Positions 28,935 to 63,503 are shown, numbered from the stretch's first letter. The stretch: DNA of 64,000 nucleotides from a virus (IMGVR_UViG_3300029957_000008:1-64000), one strand, 5' to 3'. The notes: a model not told the origin generated them from the letters alone. Made by a program: numbers and translations.

Positions 28935-29354
28935 CTAAAAGGTGTGATCATATTTTTCTAGAAACTTGTAATAGTCTTTTAATGCCTTCTTGTGCTCTTT
29001 CAAGAACTTTATGGAATCCTTTCCCAATTCAATAACTTGTCTTACAATATCCTTAGCCGTCCTCTTAGCGTTTTCTAGTGCTTGAACTTTGGTAATGATT
29101 TCCATGTCTCGACAACTAGGCATCGGGACGACCCCCGGCTCCGCCAGTTTTTGGCGGTGATACAGAGTATAGTCGGTTGGCGTATTACAGGCTCTTTCTA
29201 CTGCCCGCTTACGGGCCTTTGCTCCAGCTAGATTCATTTGGGCATTATTAATGGCTTCCTCAACAATTTTGGCCGTATCGGCCATTTTTTCTATGGCCAG
29301 CTTGTTTTTACTCTTACCATCCATTTCTACGCCCTCTCGTTTGCTGGGTTCCAA
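28935..29354 (-). CDS. hypothetical basic helical protein
   Basis: follows groEL; start may be at MDGKSK. Confidence 0.55.
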   Translation of the reverse strand: MEPSKREGVEMDGKSKNKLAIEKMADTAKIVEEAINNAQMNLAGAKARKRAVERACNTPTDYTLYHRQKLAEPGVVPMPSCRDMEIITKVQALENAKRTAKDIVRQVIELGKDSIKFLKEHKKALKDYYKFLEKYDHTF

Positions 29355-39216: not shown

Positions 39217-39823
39217 TTGGCTCACTGATTCTGAACGCGCAGCACTAGAAGTCTTCAAGAGGAACTTCCGCAAGGGCGGTCTAGAGAGCTTCCCCCTCGC
39301 CCCGCCCACAGCTATCCAGTTTTTTGCTCTGTATCTCCAAGGTAAGACTCTTACCGAAATTGCCGAACTCAATCCTCAGTACTCATTAGGCACAATCGTC
39401 AATTCTGCGGTCTTAGACCGCTGGGATGCAAAGTATCAGGACTACTTAGAGGAGTTGTATTTCAATGCCAAGAACCGGGTAGTCCAGACTGCAGCAGAGG
39501 GAGTAGGCTTTATCTCTGACCTTCTGGCCGTTACCCACATCAAGGACGGCACCAAACTCAAGAAGTACATTCAGACCGAAGATCCTGAGTGCTTGAAGGG
39601 TAGCAACTTTGAAATAGCTTCCTTGCGCCAGTACAAAGAGGCCGTGGAAGTGCTTATGAAGCTAACCGGCCAAGACAACATCAAGAAGATTCAGGTTTCT
39701 GATGTAACTGAGCCAAAACAGCAACTAGAGCCGGAAAAGAAGCCAGAACCTGCGAAGCTGCCTTCTTTGGGGGATCTGGTAGCTACTCGAAGGAACAAGA
39801 TCCAGCAGGGTAAGGCGGAGTAA
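39116..39823 (+). CDS. terminase small subunit
   Basis: HTH LYLQGKTLTEIAE...RWD; TAATG coupling to the large subunit. Confidence 0.65.
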   Translation: MLENQNPSQQKPLEAEIVSDGSRQEITALDASVSWLTDSERAALEVFKRNFRKGGLESFPLAPPTAIQFFALYLQGKTLTEIAELNPQYSLGTIVNSAVLDRWDAKYQDYLEELYFNAKNRVVQTAAEGVGFISDLLAVTHIKDGTKLKKYIQTEDPECLKGSNFEIASLRQYKEAVEVLMKLTGQDNIKKIQVSDVTEPKQQLEPEKKPEPAKLPSLGDLVATRRNKIQQGKAE

Positions 39824-44861: not shown

Positions 44862-45644
44862 TTGAGATACTTCATACCAAAAAGCGGCGTGAAAGCCATT
44901 GATGCGGCCATTGAGGCTTTGTTCAACCGAATGAAGCTTAGGTTCCTTGGAAAGAACTTCGAACCTAAGCAGATTCGTTTCAGCGTGAAACCCGATAAGG
45001 CGGTGGACTACAGGGAAGACCTGGCACTGCCTAGCATCTTCGACAAGGCTGCCAGAAGCGAGGGGATGAAGCCTAACGAGCCCCTTAAGCAGTCGGTCAC
45101 AGAAATCATAGAGCAATACCTAGATGCTCATCAAGAGTCCGCTAAGGCCAAGATTCGCTCTACCGTGCAAACATTTTTGAGCGAGGCGGAGGCCGGTACG
45201 GAAGGTGGGGTCGAGAAGGTTCTTAAAGAAGAACTTTCGAACGTCATGGAGAAAGTAACGTCTGGCGTACAAAACGTGGTGGATAACGAAATGGGAAGAG
45301 CAAAGAACTTAAGCACCCTAGATGCAATTACGAAAATCAACGCATTCTCCAACATTTCCGATCCAACGGTGGTGTTCATTGGCCCGAACGATCAACACAC
45401 CTGTAAGGACTGCCAGAGATTGTTCTACCTAGAAGACGGGATCACGCCAAGAGCGTGGAAAGTCTCAGAACTCAAGATGGGGCTTGGAAAACACGGTGAC
45501 ACTTCTCCTTGTGCGGGCGGTCAGCATCCTCACTGTCGTCATTCATATGGCACAATGATGCCAGGTTTTGGTTTTACATCGGGCGGCAAGATAACCTATA
45601 TCGAGCCGGGGTTTGATATTTGGAAATTCCAGCATGGTGGTTGA
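44862..45644 (+). CDS. MuF-like head morphogenesis protein
   Basis: D..TCKDC...HPHCRH, immediately after portal. Confidence 0.7.
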   Translation: MRYFIPKSGVKAIDAAIEALFNRMKLRFLGKNFEPKQIRFSVKPDKAVDYREDLALPSIFDKAARSEGMKPNEPLKQSVTEIIEQYLDAHQESAKAKIRSTVQTFLSEAEAGTEGGVEKVLKEELSNVMEKVTSGVQNVVDNEMGRAKNLSTLDAITKINAFSNISDPTVVFIGPNDQHTCKDCQRLFYLEDGITPRAWKVSELKMGLGKHGDTSPCAGGQHPHCRHSYGTMMPGFGFTSGGKITYIEPGFDIWKFQHGG

Positions 45645-50181: not shown

Positions 50182-52365
50182 ATGCTGTGCCCCAACATTA
50201 AAGATTCCAAGGGAATGCTCATCGATGGAGTTTTTTCATCGGAGGCCATCGACTCTTCAGGAGAAGTTGTAAAACTTGAAGGTATTGATATCTCCTCTAT
50301 GGAAGAGGGGCACGGGGTTGCCAATTACGAGCACAAGGGAATAGACGCTGGAGGCTTTGGCCGGGAGATCGTAGGAAGGATCATCTACGTCCACAAGGTT
50401 TTTAAGGCTTCGGACTGCGAAGATGACCGCCAAAGGATGTTTTGGAAGAAAGTCAAGGAGCAGCCCTTTCTCTACGGTATGGTCCGGCTTTACGATGCTG
50501 CGGGCCACACCGGAGCAGAGGCCCTAGCGGCCCAAATCCGGGATGCTGTCTACCACGATGATGAAATTACGGTTAGGTACTCCGTAGAGGGTACAACCCT
50601 TGAGCGGGATGGAAACATCATTAAGACCTCCATCGCTAGGAAGGTTGCTCTAATCATTGGCCCCTGCAATAAGACCTGTCTATCCGGTGTGGTTAAAGAC
50701 ACCAACGCCCCTAAGGGATACCAAAAAGAGGACATCGAGAAGTCTGAATTATTGTCCGATCCTTCAAGCCGAAGCATCGGTGACGCCCCAGAGTACCAGT
50801 ACAACCCAATCGTGTCGGATTTTACCAAGAACCCGCTTATTGATCTGGTCCAGAGCTTAGAGCTACTAAAGAGCATGACGGCGGGTGGTGGAGACGCAGC
50901 CCCTTCTACTCTTACTGGCGGCCAAGCTCTACAAAGGGAAGAGCTAGGTGGCGTCTACAAGAACCACATCGTTGACGCCATCAAGGACTACAAAGACCCT
51001 TGGGACCACGGTAAGTTTCGAAAGTTTCTAAAAGCTCGGTTGGACAAAGCTGACCTTCCTGAGGTTTCTGACTCGTTCTTGGACTACTTCATGGGGATCG
51101 CCAAGGACTACCAGATTAAGAAGCATCAGGACATTAACCAGGAGTACATTACTAATACTTCGCTGGTTGGCCAAGTCCATCAGTTAGAAGGATATCTGGT
51201 TGAGCTGAGGAAGTCCATCAGAGACGAGCTAGAGGGGTACCAAGTTAGCCTTCCTGAGGTTTACGCCGTCAAGATGAAGGTGGGTAATGATTACCTACCC
51301 GCTGGTCGGTTCATGGTGGTTCAAAACGCAGTCCACCACCTAGAAGACTACCATGGGATCCTAGCAGCTATGATTCCCGAAGGGCCTTTGGGTGTAGACG
51401 GCCAGACTGGAATAGAAGCCCTCAAGATGGTCCCCGAGTTCTCGGTTACCGAGCATCAGATTCCTGAGCCGGTAGCCAATACAGTACCTGGTATTGTTGG
51501 GGTGGTTTCCAACAAGCTTCAAGCCCCACAAAGGGCCGCTGTTTTTGAATATATTCGGCCCGGTATGGGGCAGTCCCATATTGTTGAGTTTAGTGAGCAT
51601 GGCGCAGCCCTGGATGGTGAAAAGCTGACAGATGATGAGCTGAATCTCATTGTCTCCAATGTTGAAAGCGGTTTGGCTACTCTCAAGTGGAAGCAGAATA
51701 GCAACCAGGACTTGAGTAAGTCTGACATGGGCGTGCATGAGGCTATGGCTGGTTTAAGAGCGGCCGTATCGGCCGGACATGTGCATCCTGATGTCGAAAG
51801 GGCGTTTACCAAGCACGTCTTTGAGGACCACATGGTTCCTGGGGTGGGTAATAAGTTCGCTTGGAATGAATTTCAACGACAGAACAAGCCAGGAGTACTT
51901 GGGTCTATTGATCTTAACTCTTTTAAGCACATTAACGATACTCGCGGCCATATTGCCGGCGATAGCGCGATCAAGGCCGTTGGTGGGGCACTGAAGAGTG
52001 CTGCTGAGAAGGTTGGGACAGTAAAGCTGTTTAGGACTGGTGGAGACGAGTTTGCCATTCACAGCCCTACTCAAGAAGATGCTCATAGGTTTATGAGAGA
52101 AGCAAGGTCTCACATGGCTCAAATACCGCCAGTTGGCGGGGTACATAAGCCATCGTTCAGTATCGGCTTGGGCCAGGACTTTGGGACGGCAGACAAGGCT
52201 TTGTATCTAGCCAAGAAGCAAAAGGTCGATCCTGTGACGGGTAAGAACGCCTATCACCCTGCCAGAACTCCTCACTTGGGGCACTCTTTGCTGCCAGGAT
52301 CGGAAGGGCCGATCAATATGTCTGAAGCACCTACGGCTTCGACTGGGTCAAAGGTAGCGGCGTAG
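50182..52365 (+). CDS. prohead protease fused to C-terminal GGDEF diguanylate cyclase
   Basis: N-term IDSSGE, NYEH, YSVEG, VAL...PCN; C-term DLNSFKHINDTRGHIAGD...RTGGDEF...ADKALYLAK. Confidence 0.85.
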   Translation: MLCPNIKDSKGMLIDGVFSSEAIDSSGEVVKLEGIDISSMEEGHGVANYEHKGIDAGGFGREIVGRIIYVHKVFKASDCEDDRQRMFWKKVKEQPFLYGMVRLYDAAGHTGAEALAAQIRDAVYHDDEITVRYSVEGTTLERDGNIIKTSIARKVALIIGPCNKTCLSGVVKDTNAPKGYQKEDIEKSELLSDPSSRSIGDAPEYQYNPIVSDFTKNPLIDLVQSLELLKSMTAGGGDAAPSTLTGGQALQREELGGVYKNHIVDAIKDYKDPWDHGKFRKFLKARLDKADLPEVSDSFLDYFMGIAKDYQIKKHQDINQEYITNTSLVGQVHQLEGYLVELRKSIRDELEGYQVSLPEVYAVKMKVGNDYLPAGRFMVVQNAVHHLEDYHGILAAMIPEGPLGVDGQTGIEALKMVPEFSVTEHQIPEPVANTVPGIVGVVSNKLQAPQRAAVFEYIRPGMGQSHIVEFSEHGAALDGEKLTDDELNLIVSNVESGLATLKWKQNSNQDLSKSDMGVHEAMAGLRAAVSAGHVHPDVERAFTKHVFEDHMVPGVGNKFAWNEFQRQNKPGVLGSIDLNSFKHINDTRGHIAGDSAIKAVGGALKSAAEKVGTVKLFRTGGDEFAIHSPTQEDAHRFMREARSHMAQIPPVGGVHKPSFSIGLGQDFGTADKALYLAKKQKVDPVTGKNAYHPARTPHLGHSLLPGSEGPINMSEAPTASTGSKVAA

Positions 52366-52687
52366 TCTTTCGGCAGCTTTTGCAGGTTCGTTCGCGTTGA
52401 GTGAACGATAAGAACATTGGCAGGACCTTGTTGCAGGCGTAGCACTCTCTGAGGCCGCTGTCCGCATTGCATTTGCTGCATAGGCCGTTGCTGTTCAGTT
52501 TTCGGTGTTTGAGGCAGCAGGCGCAGACTGTATCTGGCCACTTTTTGACCATTATGTCCTCTTTCCTGCAGGATTTACACTTTGAAGTGACGGGTCTAGC
52601 TGTGCCCTCCCGGATGAACTCATGGAAGGCCCTCCTGGGAAGGGCTTTCTTGCATCCAGAGCATCTGTAGGTCTCGTCAGCGGTCAC
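52331..52687 (-). CDS. multi-Zn-ribbon protein
   Basis: six CxxC pairs; GTG start 14 nt after a TAATCTT motif. Confidence 0.55.
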   Translation of the reverse strand: MTADETYRCSGCKKALPRRAFHEFIREGTARPVTSKCKSCRKEDIMVKKWPDTVCACCLKHRKLNSNGLCSKCNADSGLRECYACNKVLPMFLSFTQRERTCKSCRKTTPLPLTQSKP

Positions 52688-52779
52688 TATTGGTAAGATT
52701 AGTGTTTTATACATTTTTTGTAGCTCACTAATGTCAATCATTAATAAGAGCAGTTTGCTCGTAACTTTAAGGAGACTCC

Positions 52780-53259
52780 ATGGCTACATCGCGAAAAGCA
52801 CAAGATATTGCACGAGACCTACTCGATACTTTCGGTAAGCAGGTCGCGGCTACTCTGCCCGTTCAAGTTCAGACGGCAGACAGTTCGGGCAACCCCATTC
52901 TAACCCTTTCGGCAGACTCCACCCCGGCGACTGGTGAAAAGGTCGTTGTCATTGTTGTCTCGCCTTATGCGAGCGGCACGGCGTACGACATCTTTGGTAA
53001 TGCGGCTCTCAATTACTCGCCCACCAAGATTCAGTTCTGCACTGAAGCGAACTACGCGGCTACCACGGACAACGTTGCTGACATCCTTACTCCTACCGAG
53101 CTTCTCCCCATTATCTCGGAGATTTCGAAGAGGGGTACTCTTGTTGAGTGGCACGTGACCGCGAACGGCACCGTTCCTTCGGCCGCCGCCATCGCAGCGG
53201 GTACTGTTCTCAGCGCAACGTTTGCTCCGCTATACAACGGCGTTCAATCTGCGATCTAA
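52780..53259 (+). CDS. putative head structural/decoration protein
   Basis: AAGGAG RBS; upstream of scaffold and capsid genes. Confidence 0.55.
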   Translation: MATSRKAQDIARDLLDTFGKQVAATLPVQVQTADSSGNPILTLSADSTPATGEKVVVIVVSPYASGTAYDIFGNAALNYSPTKIQFCTEANYAATTDNVADILTPTELLPIISEISKRGTLVEWHVTANGTVPSAAAIAAGTVLSATFAPLYNGVQSAI

Positions 53260-53286
53260 TTGGGCACTTGATTTAAGGAGCCCACA

Positions 53287-54219
53287 ATGGACATGAAAAA
53301 TCTAACAAAGAAAGGTCTGGAGAAACTCATTGATGATGTTTCTTTGGGTCTTACGGCCGTCTTGGCAAAAGCCGAGGCGGAAGGCGCTGTTGAAGGACAG
53401 ACGCTAGCGAAAGCAGACCCAGGGCAGGAAGCTCCTGCGGAAAAGGTCCCTGCTGGTTCGTCTAGCGAAAGTTCCGATTCCAGCCCCGCCAAAGAGGAAT
53501 CTAGTCCTGCAGCCCCGGCCGCAGATGCTAGTCCTGCTGAGGAAACTCCTGGTGAAGTACCTGTTGCAGAAGGGGCGCCTGCTCCTAGTGCCGAAGGTTC
53601 GGAACCAGCAGAAGACACGGGTGGTACGGTTGAGCAGCTTCAGGCTGAATACGCCGCACTTCCTGTCGAGGAACAGAAGATGCACTTGCTAGCTCTCAAA
53701 GCTGCTTTGATGTCGACGTTGGCATCTCAGGGTGGCGAAGGCGATGCCGGTGTTGCTCCTGAAGGTATGCCTGCTCCAGACGCTTCTGCGGCTCCCGCCG
53801 CTCCCGAAGCTGCTGCCCCAGCGCCTGCCCCAGAGCAAACAGAAATGCCTCCGATGGCTAAGTCCGAAGACCGAGCACTTGCTCTAGAACTTGAGACCCT
53901 TAAGAAGGCCTTGAGTGACAAGGAAGAGATTATTGCAAGCACCAATCAAATGGCGGCTGCTTTCAAGAACTTCCTTGAGCGAAACAACGGTCGTCGGCTT
54001 TCAGTCGCTGCGGCTTCGGTTATGCCGAAGACTCAGACCGACCTAGCCAAGTCAGAAGGTATTGACGTCACCTCTCTTTCCCCAGTGGAAATCAACCGGA
54101 AGCTCACAGAGGTAGCGGCTTCGGGAACCCTCAAGAAATCAGATAAAGACCTCGTCCTTAAGTATGTAGCTGGCAGGGACAAAAAAGATGTCGGCTCAAT
54201 CGCACATCTTTTAAAGTAA
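53287..54219 (+). CDS. head scaffolding protein
   Basis: acidic A/P/E-rich coiled coil immediately upstream of capsid gene; several LAK(A/S) motifs. Confidence 0.7.
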   Translation: MDMKNLTKKGLEKLIDDVSLGLTAVLAKAEAEGAVEGQTLAKADPGQEAPAEKVPAGSSSESSDSSPAKEESSPAAPAADASPAEETPGEVPVAEGAPAPSAEGSEPAEDTGGTVEQLQAEYAALPVEEQKMHLLALKAALMSTLASQGGEGDAGVAPEGMPAPDASAAPAAPEAAAPAPAPEQTEMPPMAKSEDRALALELETLKKALSDKEEIIASTNQMAAAFKNFLERNNGRRLSVAAASVMPKTQTDLAKSEGIDVTSLSPVEINRKLTEVAASGTLKKSDKDLVLKYVAGRDKKDVGSIAHLLK

Positions 54220-54235
54220 TAAGGAGACCCTTCAC

Positions 54236-55651
54236 ATGAATCCATTGTCGCAAATTCAAGACCTCGTAAAGGCACTAGAGGCCGGCAACTATGATGCCGC
54301 CCCCAGCACACTAGAGCAAGGCTCTGCCCTGCAGATTGAAGACCTCAATCCTGTCATGGTCATGGTCACAGCAGAAGAAAAACACATTAAGCTCCAGAAG
54401 CTGATTCCTGTTGAGTCGTCTAAGTCGACGACTTTTCAGTTCAACCGTCAGCTCTCGGTTGGTATCATGGGTGGCAGCGCTCAGATGGAAGGTAACGTTG
54501 GTCAAGAGGAAACTTCTGACTACGTACGTATCACCATCCCAATGACGTACTACTCGCACATTCGTCGGGTGACTGTTGCTTCGACCTTGGTTGCCAGCTC
54601 TGATGGTAAGAAGTCAGATGAACGGGCGGCTCAGGATGCGGCTAAGAAAGTCTCCTTTGACGTTGAGTTCGACCTCTTCCGTGGTCTTGAGTGTTTCAGC
54701 AACGCCGGTACTTTCGACGGCAACCCGCTGACCACCTCGAACCTTCTCCCCAACATGCATGGCCTTTCGCTCCAGGTTCGTCAGTCGGACTTCCAGGTGA
54801 ACAGCCGTGATGCAATGTTCGCCGAGTTCGGTTCGGATCAGACGGTTGTTCTTTCAGCCGGTGGTTCGACTCTAACCCAGGGTATCATTGAAGACGGCGC
54901 TCTCCGTAGCTCTTTGGGCTTCGGCGAAGCGGACAAGCTCATTGTGGATCCCGTGGTTCTCGCTAACTACAACAAGATCACGTTCGGCAAAGAGCGTATC
55001 ATCCTCGCGGGTAGCCCGCAAGATGCGACTGCCGGTGACCTTCGTCGTCAGTGGGTCTCGGGCGGCACTGTGAACATTGAAGCTTCGCAGTTCCTCCGTG
55101 GCAAGTTCAAGCCCGCTCCTGTGCGTGCGAACAGCCCCGTGGCTCCTGCTAGCATCACTGTGACCCCGGCTTCGGCCACCAACCCGACCGGCCTCGCCGC
55201 TGGTGTTTATTACTACTTCGCTACCGCTGGTAACGAAGTTGGTGAGTCGGTTGCTTGTACGGCAGTGTCTTCGGGCAGCGTGACGAAGGACTACAAGGTT
55301 ACGGTTGTGGTTACCCAGCCCGCGTCTGGCGTCTACCGCTTCTACAACATCTACCGTTCGCCTGTCGGCGGTACGGCAGCTCAGGCCAAGTTCATTGGTC
55401 GCGTTGTTCCGACCCAGGGCTCGTCCACGACTAACTTCGTTGACCTCAACGGCATGAATCCTGCAGCGGTTACTGGTTACTTCCTTCAGAAGGACGGAGC
55501 CAGCATTCGTGAACTGGCTTCTTACAGCCGCCTCAAGCTGGCCGTCTCGGACCTCAGCATGCCGGAAGCTCACTTCCGCTTCCTGGGCCTAGCGGTTGAG
55601 ACTCCTCGCAAGTTCGTCCTCATCGACAACTTGAATGGTACCATCAGCTAA
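54236..55651 (+). CDS. major capsid protein
   Basis: KALEAG...GSALQIEDL N-arm, EFDLFRG, Ig-like insertion (YYY...YNIYRS); strong RBS and terminator. Confidence 0.85.
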   Translation: MNPLSQIQDLVKALEAGNYDAAPSTLEQGSALQIEDLNPVMVMVTAEEKHIKLQKLIPVESSKSTTFQFNRQLSVGIMGGSAQMEGNVGQEETSDYVRITIPMTYYSHIRRVTVASTLVASSDGKKSDERAAQDAAKKVSFDVEFDLFRGLECFSNAGTFDGNPLTTSNLLPNMHGLSLQVRQSDFQVNSRDAMFAEFGSDQTVVLSAGGSTLTQGIIEDGALRSSLGFGEADKLIVDPVVLANYNKITFGKERIILAGSPQDATAGDLRRQWVSGGTVNIEASQFLRGKFKPAPVRANSPVAPASITVTPASATNPTGLAAGVYYYFATAGNEVGESVACTAVSSGSVTKDYKVTVVVTQPASGVYRFYNIYRSPVGGTAAQAKFIGRVVPTQGSSTTNFVDLNGMNPAAVTGYFLQKDGASIRELASYSRLKLAVSDLSMPEAHFRFLGLAVETPRKFVLIDNLNGTIS

Positions 55652-55679
55652 TAACTAAAGCTTACATAGCTTAAGAAAC

Positions 55680-55700
55680 AAGGCCCGCAAGGGCCTTTTT
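55680..55700 (+). terminator. rho-independent terminator
   Basis: AAGGCCC-GCAA-GGGCCTT followed by a T run. Confidence 0.9.
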
Positions 55701-55769
55701 CTTTTGTTAAACAAGTACTTGACAAGGTCTCTCCTTTTTGTTAAACATTGTTCCTTGGAAAGGGTTTTC

Positions 55770-56012
55770 ATGCAAACATTGGGAAAGACAGAAAAAGAGA
55801 GGGATTTTCTTGCTGGATATCAGGCTGGTGGCATTAATTACCTGAAGGTGGTCGTTGGGATTTTAGAATCCGCCGCCTCCGAAGTATACGAAGAGGCCTA
55901 CCCCAAAGAAGAAGACAGGCAAACATACGGTGTGTTGTGTGGGCTGATTAATGATGTGAAAAAAGAAATAAACTATATTATTGCCGAAAGGATTGTAAGT
56001 AGTTCTAAATAG
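55770..56012 (+). CDS. hypothetical protein
   Basis: start refined to MQTLG downstream of a TTGACA. Confidence 0.55.
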   Translation: MQTLGKTEKERDFLAGYQAGGINYLKVVVGILESAASEVYEEAYPKEEDRQTYGVLCGLINDVKKEINYIIAERIVSSSK

Positions 56013-56026
56013 AGGGCTTTATCTAC

Positions 56027-56054
56027 TTGACGCCATGGGTGGTTGTGATACAAT
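56027..56054 (+). promoter_or_regulatory. sigma70-type promoter, leaderless
   Basis: TTGACG-16-TACAAT, 6 nt before ATG. Confidence 0.7.
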
Positions 56055-56060
56055 AATCCC

Positions 56061-56624
56061 ATGATTCGCGTTCTAATTTGTTCAGCTTACGGCAACCAGC
56101 CTTCAAATCTGGTTAAGGCCCTTAAATATTCACGATACGCCTTATATAAGGGTTATGCCACCTTTGCTCCACACATCGAGTACTCTTCTTGTCTTTCCGA
56201 TTCCGATGAGGACGAACGGGAGATGGGTATTAATGCCGGACTGGCATTTTTATTAGTGTGTGGGGAGATGTGGGTCTTTGTGGTTGATGGCGTTCTCTCA
56301 ACTGGCATGAAGAAAGAGATCAAAACAGCGATTAAGAACAACGTCCTAATCCGTTGGTTTGATGCCTCGAACGACGAGGATATTAAAGAGCTAATGCACA
56401 TTCCTTCAGACAGAGTACCCCTCAAGAGAGACTTCGTTACCGACCTAGGAAAGGCTACGGTCAGCAAGTTTTCCGAGATCGAAGCCTTGCTTAAGAGTGG
56501 GGCTAAGTATGGAGACTTGGTAGACAGCATTGACGATCTCCTTGGAACCGCCATGCCAGACAGGGATCTTGAGGCCGAGCAAATCTACGAAAACACAGTT
56601 AAGGATCGAGATGAAGAAATATAA
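56061..56624 (+). CDS. nucleoside 2-deoxyribosyltransferase-like protein
   Basis: ICSAY, FAPH, ER..G...L..C.EMWVF, STGMKKEI. Confidence 0.65.
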   Translation: MIRVLICSAYGNQPSNLVKALKYSRYALYKGYATFAPHIEYSSCLSDSDEDEREMGINAGLAFLLVCGEMWVFVVDGVLSTGMKKEIKTAIKNNVLIRWFDASNDEDIKELMHIPSDRVPLKRDFVTDLGKATVSKFSEIEALLKSGAKYGDLVDSIDDLLGTAMPDRDLEAEQIYENTVKDRDEEI

Positions 56625-56883
56625 GTGGAAAGAATCATCCGTAGTCTTGCAGCTTCTGCGGGATGACGCACAGTCAAAGATCCTGGTGGATGCTCTCCGT
56701 CAGAGACAGCTCAAATCGGATGTGACGGTAAAGCTGGACGGGAAAACCTACCGACTCGTTGAAGCGTTCCCGTGTAGGGCATCCTCCGACAAGATCTGGA
56801 AGGAACAGGTTAAATACTGTCTACGGAAATTACGAGATTTCTTGAATCGATTTCTAGGTCGTCCGATTCCCTCACATAGCTAA
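56611..56883 (+). CDS. hypothetical protein
   Basis: ATG overlapping upstream gene end. Confidence 0.5.
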   Translation: MKKYKWKESSVVLQLLRDDAQSKILVDALRQRQLKSDVTVKLDGKTYRLVEAFPCRASSDKIWKEQVKYCLRKLRDFLNRFLGRPIPSHS

Positions 56884-56902
56884 TCCCAACAATCTTTATT
56901 GC

Positions 56903-57328
56903 ATGAAGCTTTCGGCACGTCCTCTCATTGATGTTTCGTCTGTTAACGACTACGGTACGTCCGAACAGTTAGAGATGACGGCCGGTGACAGCCCCACTCT
57001 TTACCTGCAACTCATTGATTTAGAAAAGAATCTAGCCAAATACGGCTACGAGCCGGCAGGGCTAAGGTATATGCCCCTGGCGACCACAACGCCTACCTTG
57101 GCTGTTACCTTTACCCATATTGACGACGCCAAGCAGTTCACCAGATTTGCCACACAGCCCTTTACTCAGGATCCTTCGATTTGGGCCTGTCCAATCCTAG
57201 CAAGCGATCCAATTGCCGGCACCGTTACAATCAAGTGTGTTTTGACTGAAAACAAAGGCACCTCCCTAGCCCCTATTCCGGTTCAGAAGACCTTTACGAT
57301 GCACGCTGCAGTGCTGGTTGGCGTATAA
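56903..57328 (+). CDS. putative virion structural protein
   Basis: late motif CAATCTTTAT at 56890; beta-rich. Confidence 0.55.
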   Translation: MKLSARPLIDVSSVNDYGTSEQLEMTAGDSPTLYLQLIDLEKNLAKYGYEPAGLRYMPLATTTPTLAVTFTHIDDAKQFTRFATQPFTQDPSIWACPILASDPIAGTVTIKCVLTENKGTSLAPIPVQKTFTMHAAVLVGV

Positions 57329-57329
57329 T

Positions 57330-58175
57330 ATGGCTGATTTCTCAAATTCCAAGGACGGCTTAGGTCGGGTTCTATCAGAGAACGCGGTTGCCGTCCAGTG
57401 GGAGGACTTAGAACCCCTCCTTTCTCCCCAACAGCTGATCAGGCTCCATCTCTTTGGTCTACCCCTCGTTTCTGGTGTAAGGAATCCTATCACCAGAAAA
57501 TTTGACGTAATGACGAGCGATATTCTCAAGGAGCATATTCTCAATGCGATTGCCCTTGCGGAAGAGGAAGCCAGGATTGACATCTTCCCTCGTCAGTACA
57601 AGGAGAAGCAGGCGTTCGACAGAGTAGCCTATCAGAACTTTGGCTACTTTCAACTGCGCCACCTTCCTGTAGACAGCATCCAAGACCTCGTAGTTGCTAC
57701 CTCGTCTGAAGACCAAGTCTATAGAGTCCCCTTGGACTGGATCGACGTGGGATATCTCAGGCAAGGGCAGATGAACATTCTACCCCTAACCCTCAAGATT
57801 CAAAACGGTGTTATGTCCCCTCTTTTGGCCGGTCCAGGCGGCAGCGCCTTCCTGGCCATCTTTGGGAACTATCCATGGCTGGCTTCTTTCTGGGAGGTTT
57901 TCTACACTACCGGCTTCAAGGATGGAACGCTCCCTAAGATCGTCAATCAGTACATCGGCACCATTGCGGCCATGGAGGTCATCTCGGCCCTGGCCGCAAC
58001 CTATTCAAGGACAACTTCCAATAGCTTGAATATTGATGGTTTAGGACAGTCGATTTCTGGTCCTGGTCCTGAGCTGTATAAGACCCGACTGAACGATCTT
58101 GAAGTGAAGCGCAAGATGCTCTGTGGCCGCCTCAAGAACCGCCTTGGAGTCGGAATTTTAGTGAATAACGTTTAA
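57330..58175 (+). CDS. head-tail adaptor/neck protein
   Basis: LFGLPL, YTTGF...LP...IG.IAA, SLNIDGLGQSIS. Confidence 0.65.
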   Translation: MADFSNSKDGLGRVLSENAVAVQWEDLEPLLSPQQLIRLHLFGLPLVSGVRNPITRKFDVMTSDILKEHILNAIALAEEEARIDIFPRQYKEKQAFDRVAYQNFGYFQLRHLPVDSIQDLVVATSSEDQVYRVPLDWIDVGYLRQGQMNILPLTLKIQNGVMSPLLAGPGGSAFLAIFGNYPWLASFWEVFYTTGFKDGTLPKIVNQYIGTIAAMEVISALAATYSRTTSNSLNIDGLGQSISGPGPELYKTRLNDLEVKRKMLCGRLKNRLGVGILVNNV

Positions 58176-61100
58176 ATGGATCAAGACACCAAACCCAAGG
58201 AGTTTTCTGTCGTCATCATTTCTGATGGCCAAGGGAAAGTTCTGTTTGGCAAGCGAAACGACAATAAGAAGTGGACGTTGGCTGCAGGCGGCCTTAATCC
58301 GGGCGAAACGCCCGAAGAAGGAGCCTTAAGAGAAATGTTCGAGGAGACAGGGTTAAGACCGAAGAAGCTGTCCTTTGTAACGACAAAAAAGACTCCCAAC
58401 AATACAGTCCACTTCTTCTCATGTCAATGCCCCGGTGAGCCTACTACCGAAAACGATCCCGACAAGGAATGCTCCAAGCTTCAATGGGTTGATGTTCGTG
58501 GTGGAGTCCCTTCCAACATATGGAACAACCTCCATGGTCCAAAGGGCGATGAAAACATCGTAAGACAAGTCTACGACCTCAAGAAGTCGGAGCAAGTTTG
58601 GCTAGAGGATTGTGGATTCCTAGACCTATCTAAGTCAGAAAACGAGTCAGAGGTTTCGACACTTCTAAGGCACCCAAATCCCTCTGAACGATCTCTAGCC
58701 CTTAAGCTCAACACCGTCACACCTCACGATCTAGCCGTGGCTATCCTAGATCCAGATCCTAAGGTCTGGGGAACGGCGTTTGACCACAAAGATGCTACCC
58801 ACGCTCACACAATTCTCTCTTCTAATACTAGGGATGCTGCGGGAAACCCTCTTTGGGAACGACACAACCTGCTACTAAAAGACCCCAGGTTCAATAAAGA
58901 GCATCTTACGCTCATGGCTCATGCCGTCCGCAAAGACTCCTCGTTATCCCCTAAAGACCAAGCTGACAGACTTAAGGTCTTGGCCCTCAATGGGTACTCG
59001 GATCTCAAGAAGTCTTCTGCGTGGGCACATCATCTGTTATACGCAGGTTCCACCCAAGGACAAGATCTTGCCGACTCAAGTGCCGAACCTGTTCACGAGA
59101 CCCTAAAGCCTCTCAAACACGAGTATGAATCGGCTCTATCGTCTGAGGACGCTATTGAGCCGCACAACGCTGGTTTGCATGACATTGGCCAGGTGTCTCA
59201 TAAGGTGGTCTACAAGGTTGGATCTAACAAGCTCATGGTGAAGCCCTATGCCGAAGAAGAACAGCCTTTGTCTGGTTGGTCTGAAGGGGCTTCTCAAGCT
59301 ATCTACCATGCCGCCGGTTTGGGACACCTACATCAAAGGTCCTTTGTGTCCCATCACGGCGGTGGGAAGTACAACATTCCGGCTACTGTGATTCATTTGG
59401 ATGCTGAGGCAACGCCTATCCATAAGGCTCCCTTAGGGACAGTCAGGGAGCAGAATCCGGCTTTGGATGACGAAGCCAGGAAGATGTCTGTGATGGACTT
59501 CCTTACGGCGAACCACGACCGGCACACCAACAACCTCATGGTCCAAAAGAACGGCCATTTGTTGGCCGTGGATAACGCCAGTGCGTTTGGAAGCCACCCG
59601 TACACATTTCCTTACTACACCAATAAGGGTGTAAGCGTAGTTCTTGGAAAAAATCATGACATGCTGCCTGAAGGGAAGCAGGCCTATACACGGCTATTAG
59701 CCGATTGGTGGCCTGGGATTAGTACGGATGTGAAGTCTGAGCTGAATAAGCGGGTCGCCCAGATTAAGCACCCGGCTCACAGTCGGAGAATCAAGGAGGC
59801 CTTTGACCAAAGGGCTGCTTGGCTAGACCGAAAGTCTCAGGAAGCCAAAGCTGGAAATGTTAGTGGGTTTGATGACTTTGCTCCTGCTCCGTTAGAGAAA
59901 AGGATGGAGGAAGCCGAGTTTCTTGGCGATCACCCTAAGATGAAAATCGAAGGGTTGCACGAGAATCTTTTGGACAAGCACCCGGCGTCAATGAACGCCG
60001 ACGTAGAGCACTTTGAGAAGAACGTCAATACCTCTAAGCACAATGTACGCCCTTTGAAGGAGAAGCTCAAGGGGGCCGACATGAAGGCTGTTTACGGCCA
60101 TGCGGATAAGAAGTACTTGGTTAAGCCGTCTGTTTTCAATAATGAAGAGCTGACCCACCTCAATACGCCACTTTCTGCCTGGTCAGAGCTTACACACCAG
60201 GCGATGTACCACGCTGGTGGTATCGGACACCTACACCAGAAGGTTCATGCCACTGTTGCCAAGAATGTGTTTCCTGATGCTCATGGGCTCGTAGTCCACA
60301 TGGAGCCAGGAGCCAAGGAAGTCCGGGAGCTTAATGATAAGGAGAAGACTGCGCTAACCAACCATCCTGACTTCAAGAAGATCCCCTTTATGGACTTTGT
60401 GACTTTTAACAAGGACCGTCACGAAGGAAATCTGATGGTTAAGCCTGACGGTACTCCGCTTGCGATTGACCACAGTCTTGTTTTTGGGAAAGACGCCGAC
60501 TCCAAGTTCTCCTTAGAGAACCAAGATCTGCATTATGAAGAGCCGGGGTATGGATTCAGAACGCCTATGCAGACTGCGTCCAAACCGGATGCTAGCACTT
60601 GGGCTTGGTGGGACGCAAACAAAGACAAGATCAAAGAGTCTTTCCACAAGCACGCGGACCTTATTCCTCACAAAGAGACCCGGAACAGACTAAAAGACTC
60701 GTTCAACTACAGAATGGACATGCTGGAAGATGGCGCTACGCCCATGGGCCAGCCAATTAGGGAAGGCCTACATAAGACACTTGAAGGTGCTGACTTCCTT
60801 CATAAACAGCACGATCAGCCGTCTTTAATCAAGCCCATCAACGTTGCTGGCGTCCATGACAAGCTCAAGGTCTCTACTCCTGACGCCATAAAGATTCACA
60901 GGCAGAAGTTTGAGCTTGGGTTAAATCAGCACCCAACTGTGGCTAAGCCTGTAATGAGCTACGATCCTTCGGTCAAGCGAACACTTGCAGGTGAAGAACC
61001 TAAGGCTATCTACAAGATGGGCAATGACCACGTAATGGTTAAACCCCAGGCCGCTCCAACATCAAGGCTTTCGGCCTGGAACGAAATGACTTCCCAGGCG

Positions 61101-61955
61101 ATGTACCACGCTGGAGGTATTGGGCATCTACACCAGAAGGTTCACGCAACAACTTTGGCCAATCAGGGGGGTAAGACTGTTCTTGGCAAGGACCCCCACG
61201 CAATCGTGGTGCACATGGCGCCTAACGTCCGACCCGTTTCGGAGGCATTGAAGGACGATCAAGATACCAGCTTAGACAGCATGGCCAGCAATCCAGAACA
61301 CCTACAGTCTCTCAAGAAAATCGGGGTTATGGACTGGTTGACATCGAATCCTGATAGGCATGAGGGGAATATTATGATTGCTCCCGATGGGTCTCCCTTG
61401 GCTATCGATCACGGTCGAGCTTTTTCAAGCGATAGAGTTCACGCTTTTGGTGGTGAGTATGATCGTGATTTGGAGGCTCAAGGTCGAATTGCTTTGGCCG
61501 GACACCTCAATCACCCCGACATGCCTAAGGCGACCAGTCAAATTATGGAAAGTGTTGGGAAGCAAAAGGCTTGGGACGAAGCTGTGAACAAAGACCCTCA
61601 CAAGCAGTTGGATGGGTTTGACAATTTTAGTGGGTATGGTGGTGGAGACTTTTTCTCCGACGCCACCAAAATGGGCGGATCCCCAGATGAGGAAACCTGG
61701 AACTGGTTTGACGCAAACAAAGATAAAATGCATGAGGCTTTTAGGAAGCACGCTAACATGCTCCCCGACCAAGACGCCCGAAACAAAATGATGGGGTCGT
61801 TTAATGTCAGGATGGAACACCTAAAGCAAGTTCGAGAGAATAGCCGAGGTAAGGATCCTAACAAGTTAGATGTTCAAAACCACTCACCCGTAGCTTATCG
61901 GCCTACGGCCCCAAGCATGGTTGAATCTCATCCAACGGAAAGAAGGGTAGCCTAA
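58176..61955 (+). CDS. polyprotein: Nudix hydrolase, HEAT-like region and three HipA/PI3K-like kinase domains
   Basis: Nudix box GGLNPGETPEEGALREMFEETG; three N.DRH..N.M...A(I/V)D(N/H) motifs each preceded by VKP and a conserved E. Confidence 0.85.
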   Translation: MDQDTKPKEFSVVIISDGQGKVLFGKRNDNKKWTLAAGGLNPGETPEEGALREMFEETGLRPKKLSFVTTKKTPNNTVHFFSCQCPGEPTTENDPDKECSKLQWVDVRGGVPSNIWNNLHGPKGDENIVRQVYDLKKSEQVWLEDCGFLDLSKSENESEVSTLLRHPNPSERSLALKLNTVTPHDLAVAILDPDPKVWGTAFDHKDATHAHTILSSNTRDAAGNPLWERHNLLLKDPRFNKEHLTLMAHAVRKDSSLSPKDQADRLKVLALNGYSDLKKSSAWAHHLLYAGSTQGQDLADSSAEPVHETLKPLKHEYESALSSEDAIEPHNAGLHDIGQVSHKVVYKVGSNKLMVKPYAEEEQPLSGWSEGASQAIYHAAGLGHLHQRSFVSHHGGGKYNIPATVIHLDAEATPIHKAPLGTVREQNPALDDEARKMSVMDFLTANHDRHTNNLMVQKNGHLLAVDNASAFGSHPYTFPYYTNKGVSVVLGKNHDMLPEGKQAYTRLLADWWPGISTDVKSELNKRVAQIKHPAHSRRIKEAFDQRAAWLDRKSQEAKAGNVSGFDDFAPAPLEKRMEEAEFLGDHPKMKIEGLHENLLDKHPASMNADVEHFEKNVNTSKHNVRPLKEKLKGADMKAVYGHADKKYLVKPSVFNNEELTHLNTPLSAWSELTHQAMYHAGGIGHLHQKVHATVAKNVFPDAHGLVVHMEPGAKEVRELNDKEKTALTNHPDFKKIPFMDFVTFNKDRHEGNLMVKPDGTPLAIDHSLVFGKDADSKFSLENQDLHYEEPGYGFRTPMQTASKPDASTWAWWDANKDKIKESFHKHADLIPHKETRNRLKDSFNYRMDMLEDGATPMGQPIREGLHKTLEGADFLHKQHDQPSLIKPINVAGVHDKLKVSTPDAIKIHRQKFELGLNQHPTVAKPVMSYDPSVKRTLAGEEPKAIYKMGNDHVMVKPQAAPTSRLSAWNEMTSQAMYHAGGIGHLHQKVHATTLANQGGKTVLGKDPHAIVVHMAPNVRPVSEALKDDQDTSLDSMASNPEHLQSLKKIGVMDWLTSNPDRHEGNIMIAPDGSPLAIDHGRAFSSDRVHAFGGEYDRDLEAQGRIALAGHLNHPDMPKATSQIMESVGKQKAWDEAVNKDPHKQLDGFDNFSGYGGGDFFSDATKMGGSPDEETWNWFDANKDKMHEAFRKHANMLPDQDARNKMMGSFNVRMEHLKQVRENSRGKDPNKLDVQNHSPVAYRPTAPSMVESHPTERRVA

Positions 61956-61958
61956 GTG

Positions 61959-61987
61959 TTGACTTTTTGTAACGGTATTGATATAGT
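61959..61987 (+). promoter_or_regulatory. sigma70-type promoter
   Basis: TTGACT-17-TATAGT. Confidence 0.65.
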
Positions 61988-61995
61988 AGGACAAA

Positions 61996-62181
61996 ATGAC
62001 TATTAAGGTCTATCACGCATCGAATAACTCAACCAAAAGCTACTCCGGGAGCCCTGAACAGGTTCTTGAGCAGTTGATGGCTACCTATACGTTCCTCAAG
62101 CGCTATCCAACCCATTCCTTGGCTTGCGCGTTGAAGAACCTAGGTCGGCAGCAGAATTACTTCGTTGAGATCGAGGAATAG
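61996..62181 (+). CDS. small protein paralogous to the N-domain of the downstream kinase
   Basis: KSYSGSPEQV...LKNLGRQQN versus KQVYEGTEQDV...VKDLDRSQN. Confidence 0.65.
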   Translation: MTIKVYHASNNSTKSYSGSPEQVLEQLMATYTFLKRYPTHSLACALKNLGRQQNYFVEIEE

Positions 62182-63503
62182 TGCAAGTCACAGTCCACAA
62201 CCACTTCAACGACCAGAAGCAGGTCTACGAAGGCACCGAACAGGATGTTCGATTTGAAATCTTTAATGATTTCCCGTATTTACTATCTAAATACGGTTCG
62301 GACGCCAATGTAGATCTTCTAGTTAAGGACCTTGATCGTTCCCAGAACCTTTCTGCCGTGATTTCTTCAATCACCCTAGCAAAAACCGAGGTAGAGCTAC
62401 CTCAAACTCCTGAAGCTCAGTTCTTCCCCAAGGACCAGTATCTAGAACTGGTAAGGGAAGCCGCAGAGTTCCTGTCTGGCATTCCATGTGACAAAGAAAT
62501 GCTACGCAGGACTCTCCAGGAGAACGATGGCGACGAGAAGGTTGCTTGTCTGGTATCTGTAGGTCTGGAGCCCTCTGAAGCCAACCTAGCGGCCCTAAGG
62601 GCCGTAATGAACGTTAGGTTAGCCAAGTCTGAAGAAGAGCCAATTGTCTTTAGTAAAGTTGAGGCTTTTAGTGATTCTGGCACAGATTTTGCCGAGATGA
62701 TTAAAAGGGCCGTTACGGCCCAAACTATTAAGGAAATTCAATTCAAGGCCGGCAAGCATTCCAAGGGAACACTCCTAGCCAAGGACCCAGAGACCTTCAC
62801 GCAGTTACTATTAAAGCCAGGAGCTGGCAAGCAAAATCCTGCACTTGGAGAAAGCCAAGTTCAAGCGTCCCAGAGCGTCCGGGAAGCGGCGTTTTACGCC
62901 GTAGCGGACGCATGGGGACTGGCCAAAGACCTGCCAGAGTGCAAGCTGCTGTATATTGACGATCAAGAGTATGCGGCTATGCAGTTTCTACCCCAGAAGT
63001 GGGTTAACGGCAACGATCTAAGGCGACAGGATCCCAATGCAGCCAGAAGATACCTGAGCCCCTACTTGATTCAGGGAGATGTCCATCGTTGGGCTGTATT
63101 AGACTATATTTTGGCCAATCCGGACAGGAACGCTGGAAATATCATGTTCCGGGATGGCCATATCAAGCTGATTGACCATGGGTCGGCTTTGGCCGGGATC
63201 GACTTCAGTCCAGCTATTGACAACCACGCCTTTGTTCCTTACTACCTAAGAGTTTTTGCTTCTGGCGGTTTTGGCAAGATGGAGCCAGAGCAACGTCTGA
63301 AGGCGCTACCTCGACTGAATTCTGAGGGCGAAAAGAAGCTGGCCGAGTGGATTGGTAGGCTCAACAAGGAAGTCGTACAAAAGATTCTAATTCCCTACGG
63401 GATCGATCCCACTCCTGAATTGGCTAGGTTGGAACTGTTGAAATTTGCGTGCAGTGTCCAGTCGGCCGATTTGGCTGTGTTAAGTGTGTGGACGATAGGA
63501 TAG
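62181..63503 (+). CDS. HipA/PI3K-like kinase
   Basis: LLKPG, REAAFY, LDYILANPDRNAGNIM...LIDHG. Confidence 0.82.
   Translation: MQVTVHNHFNDQKQVYEGTEQDVRFEIFNDFPYLLSKYGSDANVDLLVKDLDRSQNLSAVISSITLAKTEVELPQTPEAQFFPKDQYLELVREAAEFLSGIPCDKEMLRRTLQENDGDEKVACLVSVGLEPSEANLAALRAVMNVRLAKSEEEPIVFSKVEAFSDSGTDFAEMIKRAVTAQTIKEIQFKAGKHSKGTLLAKDPETFTQLLLKPGAGKQNPALGESQVQASQSVREAAFYAVADAWGLAKDLPECKLLYIDDQEYAAMQFLPQKWVNGNDLRRQDPNAARRYLSPYLIQGDVHRWAVLDYILANPDRNAGNIMFRDGHIKLIDHGSALAGIDFSPAIDNHAFVPYYLRVFASGGFGKMEPEQRLKALPRLNSEGEKKLAEWIGRLNKEVVQKILIPYGIDPTPELARLELLKFACSVQSADLAVLSVWTIG

Follow-up and report, generated by a model that had tools for sequence, protein, structure and literature searches.

Candidate lysine-directed processing sites in the head proteins and multi-enzyme proteins of an uncultured relative of Myxococcus phage Mx1

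Background

The stretch of DNA analyzed here (the window; 64,000 nucleotides) is the first 64 kb of the 91,976-bp IMG/VR contig IMGVR_UViG_3300029957_000008, the completeness of which is judged to be approximately 56%. Its source is an uncultured myovirus of approximately 170 kb that belongs to the group of Myxococcus phage Mx1, and the window holds the head module. The question raised by positions 50182-63503 is why a short motif, [LM]-x-K-[SAT], should recur in the head proteins and also stand at the boundaries of predicted signalling enzymes: a GGDEF domain fused to the prohead protease, a Nudix domain followed by three kinase domains in a 1259-aa protein, and a fourth kinase. A sequence-only reading of this DNA had proposed that polyproteins are packaged, cut after Lys inside the prohead and injected as free enzymes.

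The answer favoured here, with modest confidence, is that the head-maturation protease would cut the capsid protein, the scaffold, the portal, itself and the joints of cargo proteins after Lys, and that the cyclase, the Nudix hydrolase and the kinases would be co-packaged, freed and probably expelled. The parts of this answer differ in strength. It is very probable, judging from the sequences compared below, that the motif is the site of this protease in the capsid protein, the scaffold and the protease itself; it is likely that the cargo joints are cut by the prohead protease; and the chance that the virion carries the products into the host is put slightly above even.

Results and Discussion

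Occurrence of the motif

Every motif instance that the sequence-only reading had listed, the five scaffold sites (LAKAE, LAKAD, MAKSE, LAKSE, LKKSD) included, is found where that reading had placed it (Table 1). Its gene layout is amended in that the protease and the diguanylate cyclase are encoded by one 727-aa open reading frame (ORF), not two, and in that the portal has a gene of its own, which lies 5 kb upstream, outside positions 50182-63503 but within the window. Relative to expectations from shuffles within each protein, [LM]-x-K-[SAT] occurs seven times in the scaffold-like protein (1.0 expected), four times in the protease ORF (1.0 expected), three times in the portal (0.8 expected) and twice in the fourth kinase (0.65 expected). 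Over the whole 92-kb contig, L-x-K-[SA] is found 19 times in the head module versus 4.9 expected, and 25 times elsewhere versus 19.8 expected; the five-residue form [LIMV]-x-K-[SA]-[ED] is found 13 times in the head module versus 1.7 expected (p 3e-8), and 11 times elsewhere versus 6.4 expected. The enrichment in the head module of the source genome is thus 4- to 8-fold, and the excess in head ORFs over other ORFs that the sequence-only reading had anticipated is borne out.

Two complete relatives, which played no role in the definition of the motif, contain five and seven copies of the five-residue form in their head modules (1.1 and 1.7 expected) and four and 16 copies in the rest of their genomes (5.4 and 12.3 expected). 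With the looser four-residue motif, the enrichment per ORF in these two relatives is only moderate; it is the five-residue form that separates the head module from the rest. Among the three genomes, an ORF with at least two five-residue motifs nearly always encodes a scaffold, a portal, a protease polyprotein or a large multi-enzyme (polyvalent) protein, and the non-head ORFs (approximately 120,000 aa) show no enrichment of the motif. When all 8000 patterns of the form a.bc were ranked in 90 large ORFs of 45 related loci, L.KA (138 versus 46) and L.KS (93 versus 33) were among the most enriched; the patterns ranked above them include W.HW, Q.QQ and K.CN, which are assumed to be conserved domain motifs or low-complexity repeats. 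The flanks of the sites favour Glu or Asp at P4 and Glu at P2', and the context D-L-x-K-[SA] is seen at the capsid site, at one of the scaffold sites, ahead of the GGDEF domain and at the three sites that the 1259-aa protein has within residues 1-280. The three canonical sites of the 1259-aa protein are convincing by their D-L-x-K-S context, position and conservation, not by their count.

Conservation of the sites in the capsid, scaffold and portal

Related neighbourhoods were sampled as 49 IMG/VR loci with 10-kb flanks, found via an alignment of the capsid protein, the family of which comprises more than 1,400 clusters at an E value of 1e-20 or better. The candidate maturation site of the capsid protein, L-V-K12↓A (the arrow marks a putative cut), has L10, K12 and A13 invariant in 26 of 26 homologues that are 59-93% identical, and the preceding residues 1-9 are variable. 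In the scaffold, 10-11 homologues, that of Mx1 among them, retain the sites at residues 42 and 284. Of 13 portal homologues, the 8 closest retain the second N-terminal site, which immediately precedes the conserved core of the protein; the C-terminal site is retained in six. Portal and scaffold sites are common to Mx1 and further relatives. The earlier claim that one motif is shared by the capsid N-terminus, the scaffold, the portal, the protease and the joints of the enzyme domains is upheld by positional conservation in approximately 45 related metagenomic phages, which supports its behaviour as a conserved processing site, to judge from the alignments.

The prohead protease and its copy of the capsid N-arm

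The N-terminal domain of the 727-aa ORF is, by homology, a divergent HK97-type serine protease of the S78 lineage. Of 35 homologues, 23 match the family phrog_1028 (head maturation protease), at best with 5.7e-13. By hhalign, the protease profile aligns with the gp32 protease of Bacillus phage CP-51 (probability 97.8%, E 7e-13), which itself matches PF04586 Peptidase_S78 at 1e-7, above the cut-off. A Foldseek search of BFVD returned many predicted HK97-family prohead proteases (E 1e-8 to 1e-6; for example, a template modelling score, TM, of 0.64 over 190 columns), the best match being a phage protein named PI3K/PI4K catalytic domain-containing (37% identity over 285 columns). Fold searches of the PDB with the whole 727-aa model returned GGDEF matches and hence are silent on the protease fold, and no PDB sequence was matched by a profile of the protease domain. 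AlphaFold models the domain with a predicted local distance difference test score (pLDDT) above 85, and the catalytic His and Ser candidates are among H51, H109 and S134, which are invariant in 38 homologues. The gene lies between those of the portal and the scaffold and capsid proteins, an order that is the same in Mx1 and CP-51.

Directly behind the domain, the column of the candidate self-cleavage site K187 holds a triplet of Lys, a small residue and Glu in most of the 38 homologues, and the Lys of K230 is conserved in at least 90% of them. At the equivalent of K344, where a conserved C-terminal half begins, at least 14 relatives have [IV]-[ED]-L-R-K-[AS], and homology breaks off just ahead of it, at residues 334-340; K344 is in a helix (pLDDT approximately 67), so its accessibility is uncertain. 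K230 is followed immediately by a copy of the N-terminal arm of the capsid protein, with 54% identity over 37 aa to capsid residues 4-40 (E 1e-5): residues 231-258 (50872-50955) match capsid residues 13-40 (54272-54355), which follow directly after K12. An N-arm copy is also present behind the protease domains of CP-51 (L073 5333-6091), Staphylococcus phage K (L075 682-1476) and Listeria phage LP-124 (L076 674-1447), and the copy is therefore an ancestral trait of the protease lineage. A relaxed all-versus-all BLAST of the head-module proteins for a shared targeting sequence found only this copy in the protease ORF. It is possibly a docking device and, by this comparison, the sole head-targeting candidate found, one that would serve protease-borne cargo only.

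Joints, linkers and domain shuffling

AlphaFold models were obtained for the 727-aa protein (38-row alignment, mean pLDDT 82) and for residues 1-600 of the 1259-aa protein (mean pLDDT 76). In the former, residues 1-183 are confident, confidence is low at residues 184-212 (K187), from residue 234 (just after K230) and at residues 507-514 (K513), and the GGDEF domain is again confident. In the latter, the Nudix domain (5-135) is followed by a dip at residues 141-160 (between K137 and K153), the helical domain (158-276), disorder from residue 277 (K279), kinase 1 (342-578) and low confidence from residue 579. K137 is located at the C-terminus of the Nudix domain and K153 in a low-confidence stretch, 147-157. 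Blocks of mean pLDDT below 70 hold six of the eight modelled sites and make up approximately 28% of residues; the placement of the sites in linkers, expected from the sequence-only reading, holds for six of them; K289 and K344 are in helices.

The joints are also the places where relatives differ. Breakpoints of BLAST alignments fall at residues 134-154, 271-289, approximately 570-600 and 855-900 of the 1259-aa protein and at residues 315-340 and 509-511 of the protease ORF, and Nudix, kinase and other domains are reshuffled at these joints among relatives. The triplet K-[SA]-E is found at the C-terminus of the Nudix domain in 11 of 15 homologues although the downstream domains differ. In the column of K513, Lys is present in 25 of 27 homologues in which the length and the other residues of the linker vary, and a second hydrophobic-x-Lys often follows within a few residues; at the K513 joint, Mx1 and locus L022 each have a boundary between two genes, the middle domain being a separate ORF in both. 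The variant sites K575 and K867 are in homologous positions at the starts of repeats 2 and 3, and both Lys are kept in the closest relative (L004). In the fourth kinase, Lys is present at the residue-149 joint in eight of 11 homologues, and in Mx1 and four more loci the fourth-kinase unit follows other domains within one protein.

Whereas the multi-enzyme proteins of the window have only Nudix, kinase and GGDEF cargo domains, the same gene slots in relatives encode ART-PolyVal, GNAT, PBECR5 RNase, radical SAM, DnaJ-type zinc finger, LRV repeat, ParB_N and DUF6321 domains. Polyvalent proteins are packaged and injected by prediction, and have ART, kinase, GNAT, GGDEF, PBECR and ParB-like domains (PMC5512222); the ART-PolyVal, PBECR5, GNAT and ParB_N domains in orthologues of relatives therefore make the proteins of the window fit this class. 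Among 120 listed long homologues (clusters) of the protease domain, 45 have a GGDEF domain and 23 a PI3_PI4_kinase domain in the same polypeptide. The fusion of this kinase family to a prohead protease is the strongest indirect argument for the kinases as head cargo.

The enzyme domains

The GGDEF domain, the Nudix domain and four kinase domains resembling phosphatidylinositol 3-/4-kinases (PI3/4K), HipA and CtkA are real by the measure of Pfam and structural matches, in agreement with the sequence-only reading, and have intact catalytic motifs. The GGDEF domain is structurally similar to SiaD (7e6g; Z 18.5, root-mean-square deviation (rmsd) 2.6, 156 residues aligned). The signature at residue 620 and an upstream Asp are conserved, so that the predicted features of a diguanylate cyclase are present; an RxxD inhibitory site before the signature is absent from the sequence as read directly.

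The Nudix box, G-x5-E-x7-R-E-x2-E-E-x-G, is intact at residues 38-59, and structural matches of the domain to Nudix enzymes reach Z 14.3; among NCBIfam models it is most similar to those of RppH-type enzymes, with scores under the cut-offs. Kinase 1 is structurally similar to PI4KII-alpha (4pla; Z 15.2), Helicobacter pylori CtkA (3akj; Z 15.1, rmsd 3.4, 195 residues aligned) and HipA (Z 12.9). Each of the four kinases has the motif D-R-[HN]-x-x-N (DRN in the fourth) followed by [IV]-D-[HN] with the metal-binding Asp. CtkA, HipA and type II PI4-kinases have a DRHxxN-type loop as in kinase 1, yet they are not phage-borne and do not occur in tandem.

As a separate observation, the 16-aa peptide between the two sites behind the Nudix domain (58590-58637) has a core, W-L-E-D-x-G-F, that is kept in L004 and L005 and more loosely in L011; released by two cuts, the peptide could serve in docking or recognition.

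Proposed processing and its alternatives

In the favoured reading, cleavage would follow the Lys of hydrophobic-x-Lys↓Ser/Ala (or Thr), often then Glu. The capsid protein would lose its first 12 residues, the scaffold would be cut at many places and the portal at both ends, and the protease would cut itself at K187 and K230. The 727-aa protein would be cut between the middle domain and the GGDEF domain; the 1259-aa protein would be divided into the Nudix domain, a spacer, the helical domain, kinase 1, kinase 2 and kinase 3; and the fourth kinase would be separated from its N-terminal domain. Because prohead proteases act inside assembled proheads, such cuts would imply that the enzymes are co-assembled in the head and parted there, after which they would probably be expelled with the DNA, like other polyvalent proteins. 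We infer that the motif is cut, that this protease makes the cut, that virions contain the products and inject them, and what these then do in the host.

Several observations weigh against this reading. The published paper on Mx1 is a genome announcement only. By BLAST, neither the Nudix-kinase protein nor the fourth kinase shares a targeting sequence with the capsid, scaffold, portal or protease, and the Nudix domain begins at residue 5, leaving no N-terminal propeptide like those of phage T4. The five sites of the Nudix-kinase protein, versus 2.4 expected from shuffles, are alone not significant (p 0.09). The P1' residue varies at some joints (Met, Ile, Phe, Arg, His), which makes the code a loose one; the excess of L.KA could be partly compositional, E-L-x-K-A-E being a common helix pattern; and K289 and K344 are in predicted helices and perhaps inaccessible. 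Pfam gave no direct match, PF04586 included, for the protease domain and 35 homologues, so the link to S78 is indirect, via CP-51 gp32, and hhalign against HK97 gp4 gave no significant match. The signature GGDE[FMLIYG] is present in 22 of 27 relatives and degenerate in the other five (e.g. GGDRF, SGDRL); in the degenerate copies (loci L004-L052), the second acidic residue or the first Gly is lost and the domain is kept, which makes a non-catalytic role possible, at least there. The unit of middle domain and GGDEF domain is an ORF of its own in many relatives, with no visible link to the protease, although these stand-alone ORFs still keep the joint motif.

Some of these points would be expected if the motif were a real site in the capsid, scaffold, portal and protease, whereas the 1259-aa protein and the fourth kinase were ordinary late cytoplasmic enzymes that never enter the head, with joint motifs that are inherited linkers or the sites of another protease. 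The lack of a detected targeting sequence on these two proteins, the insignificant motif count of the 1259-aa protein and the plainly metabolic insertions behind the capsid gene (DUF7768 here; thymidylate synthase and deoxynucleoside monophosphate (dNMP) kinase in Mx1) agree with such an explanation, which is nonetheless considered unlikely because the joint sites keep their positions across relatives with different flanking domains, the kinase family is fused to the prohead protease in 23 of the 120 listed clusters, and orthologues in relatives have domains typical of packaged polyvalent proteins. It is distinctly improbable that the proteins are packaged and cut but serve the virion itself, in the internal head, the ejection apparatus or assembly, with a GGDEF fold that is structural or nucleotide-binding. 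The unit of middle domain and GGDEF domain does behave as a core gene, always between protease and scaffold at capsid identities of 43-93%, and is retained even where its signature is degenerate; however, most GGDEF copies, the Nudix box and all four kinase loops keep their catalytic motifs, and the downstream set of cargo is highly variable among relatives, a behaviour expected of conflict effectors rather than of structural parts.

Cleavage of the joints by a different enzyme or at a different time, whether by a host protease or after injection, is very improbable. Host proteases mature the heads of some phages, such as Staphylococcus phage 80-alpha (as cited in PMC8569155), and processing after injection has been considered by Iyer et al. 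for other polyvalent proteins (PMC5512222), but here a single motif is found on the capsid N-terminus, the scaffold and the C-terminal boundary of the protease, both in the Mx1-like group and in Herelleviridae with the same protease lineage. That the motif is an artefact of composition or of helices, with no processing at all, is scarcely credible: Leu, Lys, Ala and Glu are helix formers and two sites are in predicted helices, but approximately 120,000 aa of non-head ORFs in three genomes show no enrichment, Lys is invariant in linkers that otherwise vary in residues and length, L.KS is enriched as strongly as L.KA, and the known cuts of HK97 and phi12, considered below, follow basic residues.

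Comparison with known systems

The gp21 protease of phage T4 trims the capsid protein, the scaffold core, the packaged and injected proteins IPI-III and the ADP-ribosyltransferase Alt at the short consensus L/I-x-E. The likeness to the system proposed here, which is at the level of sequence only, is that one protease with one short consensus would serve capsid, scaffold and cargo; the differences are that T4 cleavage follows Glu, that the protease belongs to family S77, and that the cargo consists of single-domain proteins with an N-terminal targeting propeptide, not of strings of domains. In HK97, the S78 prototype (gp4/gp5), gp5 reads F-N-K103↓S104, which we take to be the known maturation cut, and has three more x-K-S sites in its delta domain; in contrast to the system proposed here, HK97 has no separate scaffold and no cargo.

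Herelleviridae (CP-51, K, and LP-124, which is A511-like) resemble the source phage in protease lineage, capsid protein (approximately 28% identity), Lys site at the capsid N-terminus, Lys-Ser-rich scaffold-like proteins and N-arm copy, and differ in that their proteases are approximately 255 aa long without enzyme cargo and that no multi-enzyme protein is encoded in the head regions examined. The scaffold-like gp33 of CP-51 has 11 sites of the form hydrophobic-x-K-[SA] versus 1.0 expected; the CP-51 capsid N-terminus reads L-N-K↓A-L-S, the portal has two N-terminal sites, and six neck and tail proteins have none. The scaffold-like protein of phage K has seven sites versus 1.2 expected and its capsid protein has V-V-K↓S, and the LP-124 sequence has A-L-K↓S-F. 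The Cps protein of A511 was reportedly found by Loessner and Scherer in 1995 to be cut after Lys23 (Lys23↓Ser24), with which the LP-124 sequence agrees; a search of the literature on phages of the SPO1, Twort and A511 types found no usable published Lys-specific consensus. Since Herelleviridae share the code, the Lys site is old in the protease lineage and was not invented by the source phage. By analogy, there is a precedent for a basic P1 residue in this lineage (HK97, phi12). Capsid proteins of Staphylococcus phage phi12 are cut after R or K (PMC8569155).

In SPN3US, mass spectrometry identified 14 cuts in nine head proteins, among them the capsid protein, the portal, abundant ejection proteins and the protease itself, at the motif A-x-E (PMC10052503). 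This system, of giant phages of the phiKZ type with a gp245-type protease, resembles the one proposed here in its single motif across head proteins; it differs in that N-terminal propeptides are removed rather than enzyme domains parted and that the protease has no fused cargo.

With polyvalent proteins the source phage has in common at least two unrelated enzymes per chain (protease and GGDEF; Nudix and three kinases), mosaic orthologues, and a late or virion gene context in a phage with portal and terminase. Assemblin-like peptidases were described by Iyer et al. in 2017 in a few polyvalent proteins, where they are rare and always C-terminal, and a processing role was proposed (PMC5512222). 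Here, in contrast, the peptidase is N-terminal, is the prohead protease of the phage itself, and is accompanied by a site code at the joints. The polyvalent proteins of that study were given no cleavage motif, their kinases belong to a truncated Ser/Thr-kinase clade and Nudix is barely mentioned, whereas the kinases here are PI3/4K-HipA-CtkA-like. The idea of the sequence-only reading loses part of its implied novelty, as polyvalent proteins and their processing by a peptidase had been proposed already, and as the trimming of ejected proteins by a prohead protease is established for T4 and for phages like SPN3US and phiKZ. What would set the system apart from those known is the combination of a predicted Lys-specific protease of the S78 lineage, its N-terminal fusion to enzyme cargo, putative sites that part whole enzyme domains, and arrays of PI3/4K-HipA-like kinases.

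If cleavage does take place at the joints, the mature virion proteins and the injected enzymes can be predicted from a simple sequence rule in a very large global group of phages with genomes near 170 kb, and the polyvalent-protein idea of 2017 becomes a mechanism open to direct test in a cultivable phage, Mx1, the host of which is Myxococcus xanthus. The protease would be the first prohead protease found to have enzymes of signalling, namely a GGDEF domain and atypical kinases, as cargo of its own; this would suggest that cyclic diguanylate (c-di-GMP) and phosphorylation in the host are manipulated before transcription. In Herelleviridae, which include therapeutic phages of Staphylococcus and Listeria, the rule appears to hold and could help to define mature capsid and scaffold products. 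A bolder and decidedly tentative extension is a plug-and-play delivery system, in which a domain of any kind, if flanked by hydrophobic-x-Lys↓Ser-Glu joints on a carrier directed to the head, would be freed in the prohead and fired into the next host along with the DNA. The carrier could be the protease, docked by its N-arm copy; a cyclic-dinucleotide synthase would be the universal core payload, and HipA/CtkA-like kinases, Nudix, ART, GNAT and RNase domains would be a fast-evolving payload that disarms host signalling or immunity before the phage is expressed.

Gene order and other features of the window

The nearest cultured relative of the source phage is Mx1 (169.6 kb), which has the same gene order. 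Terminase, portal, capsid and baseplate-like genes flank the multi-enzyme ORFs, the baseplate-like genes being downstream, past the end of the window (Table 1). Megablast of the sequence against cultured phages and a single-sequence scan of viral contigs gave no match, nor did Pfam for orf260, orf159, orf141, orf285, orf132, the middle domain and the helical domain, or PHROGs for most downstream genes.

Table 1. Features of the window and candidate processing sites, in order of position (a single number is the start of a motif)
Feature	Position	Strand	Evidence or remark
Large terminase	39823-41865	+	gene order
Portal, 665 aa	42864-44861	+	PHROG portal families, best 2e-16; 260-aa gene next
Candidate portal sites LLK↓S, LTK↓S, MTK↓S-E	42927, 42966, 44703
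Small-gene block	between 260-aa gene and 727-aa ORF	-	gene order
Protease-GGDEF ORF, 727 aa	50182-52365	+
Predicted prohead serine protease domain, residues 1-183 of 727-aa ORF	50182-50730	+	PHROG, hhalign, BFVD
Candidate self-cleavage site I-E-K187↓S-E, directly behind protease domain	50734-50748	+	low-confidence stretch 184-212
Candidate site L-L-K230↓S and capsid N-arm copy (residues 231-258)	50863-50955	+
Candidate site L-R-K344↓S, start of conserved C-terminal half	51205-51216	+	variable insert of ~500 aa directly before it in most relatives
Middle domain, mixed alpha/beta, residues 355-506	51244-51699	+	AlphaFold model; always beside GGDEF domain
Candidate site D-L-S-K513↓S-D (LSKS 51712), middle domain/GGDEF joint	51712-51723	+	low-confidence linker 507-514
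GGDEF nucleotide cyclase domain, residues 515-716, signature at 52039	51724-52329	+	PF00990 1.3e-15
159-aa gene	between 727-aa ORF and scaffold-like gene	+	gene order
Scaffold-like protein, 310 aa, Ala/Pro/Glu-rich	53287-54219	+
Major capsid protein, 471 aa	54236-55651	+	phrog_752 5e-39; 52% identity to Mx1 capsid
Candidate capsid maturation site LVKA	54263-54274
Few variable genes, then conserved 141-aa and 285-aa genes	between capsid and 1259-aa ORF	+
Nudix-kinase protein, 1259 aa	58176-61955	+
Nudix hydrolase domain, residues 5-135 of 1259-aa protein	58188-58580	+	PF00293 3.2e-19; pLDDT >86
Candidate sites D-L-K-K137↓S-E (LKKS 58578) and D-L-S-K153↓S-E (LSKS 58626) around conserved 16-aa peptide	58578-58637	+
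Small helical-repeat domain, residues 158-276	58647-59003	+	AlphaFold pLDDT 75-85; LRV-repeat Pfam match in one relative
Candidate site D-L-K-K279↓S-S (LKKS 59004), start of 65-residue disordered linker	59004-59198	+	residues 277-341 pLDDT <50
Kinase domain 1, PI3/4K-HipA-CtkA-like, DRHxxN at 59517	59199-59891	+	PF00454 1.1e-26 over three stretches
Kinase domain 2, DRHxxN at 60414, flanked by variant candidate sites L-E-K575↓R (LEKR 59892) and L-H-K867↓T (LHKT 60768)	59892-60779	+
Kinase domain 3, DRHxxN at 61353, and C-terminal tail	60780-61955	+
Fourth kinase protein, 440 aa, DRNxxN at 63123; candidate sites L-A-K68↓T-E (LAKT 62376) and L-A-K149↓S-E (LAKS 62619) before kinase domain	62181-63503	+	PF00454 1.3e-7

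The conserved 260-aa gene after the portal (44862-45644) has a weak match (3.7e-5) to the C-terminal part of the 717-position portal family phrog_2662, and may be a piece that is fused to the portal in other phages. Between the protease-GGDEF ORF and the 159-aa gene there is a 415-nt gap (52331-52741) that has no long frame on the plus strand and is filled by a 136-aa ORF on the minus strand, the translation of which has BLAST matches in 25 related loci; the equivalent gap of Mx1 is unannotated and contains a minus-strand ORF at L003 12141-12632. The variable slot behind the capsid gene is occupied at 56061-56624 by a DUF7768 or nucleoside 2-deoxyribosyltransferase-like gene, where Mx1 has genes of thymidylate synthase and dNMP kinase instead. 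The DUF7768 protein has three copies of L-x-K-[SA] versus 0.3 expected, one of them in a C-terminal extension, for which chance and a role as head cargo are both possible. In one of the complete relatives, a 614-aa ORF on the minus strand (G002 contig 29220-31064, locus L056), distant from the head module, has three five-residue motifs versus 0.2 expected and may encode a further virion protein.

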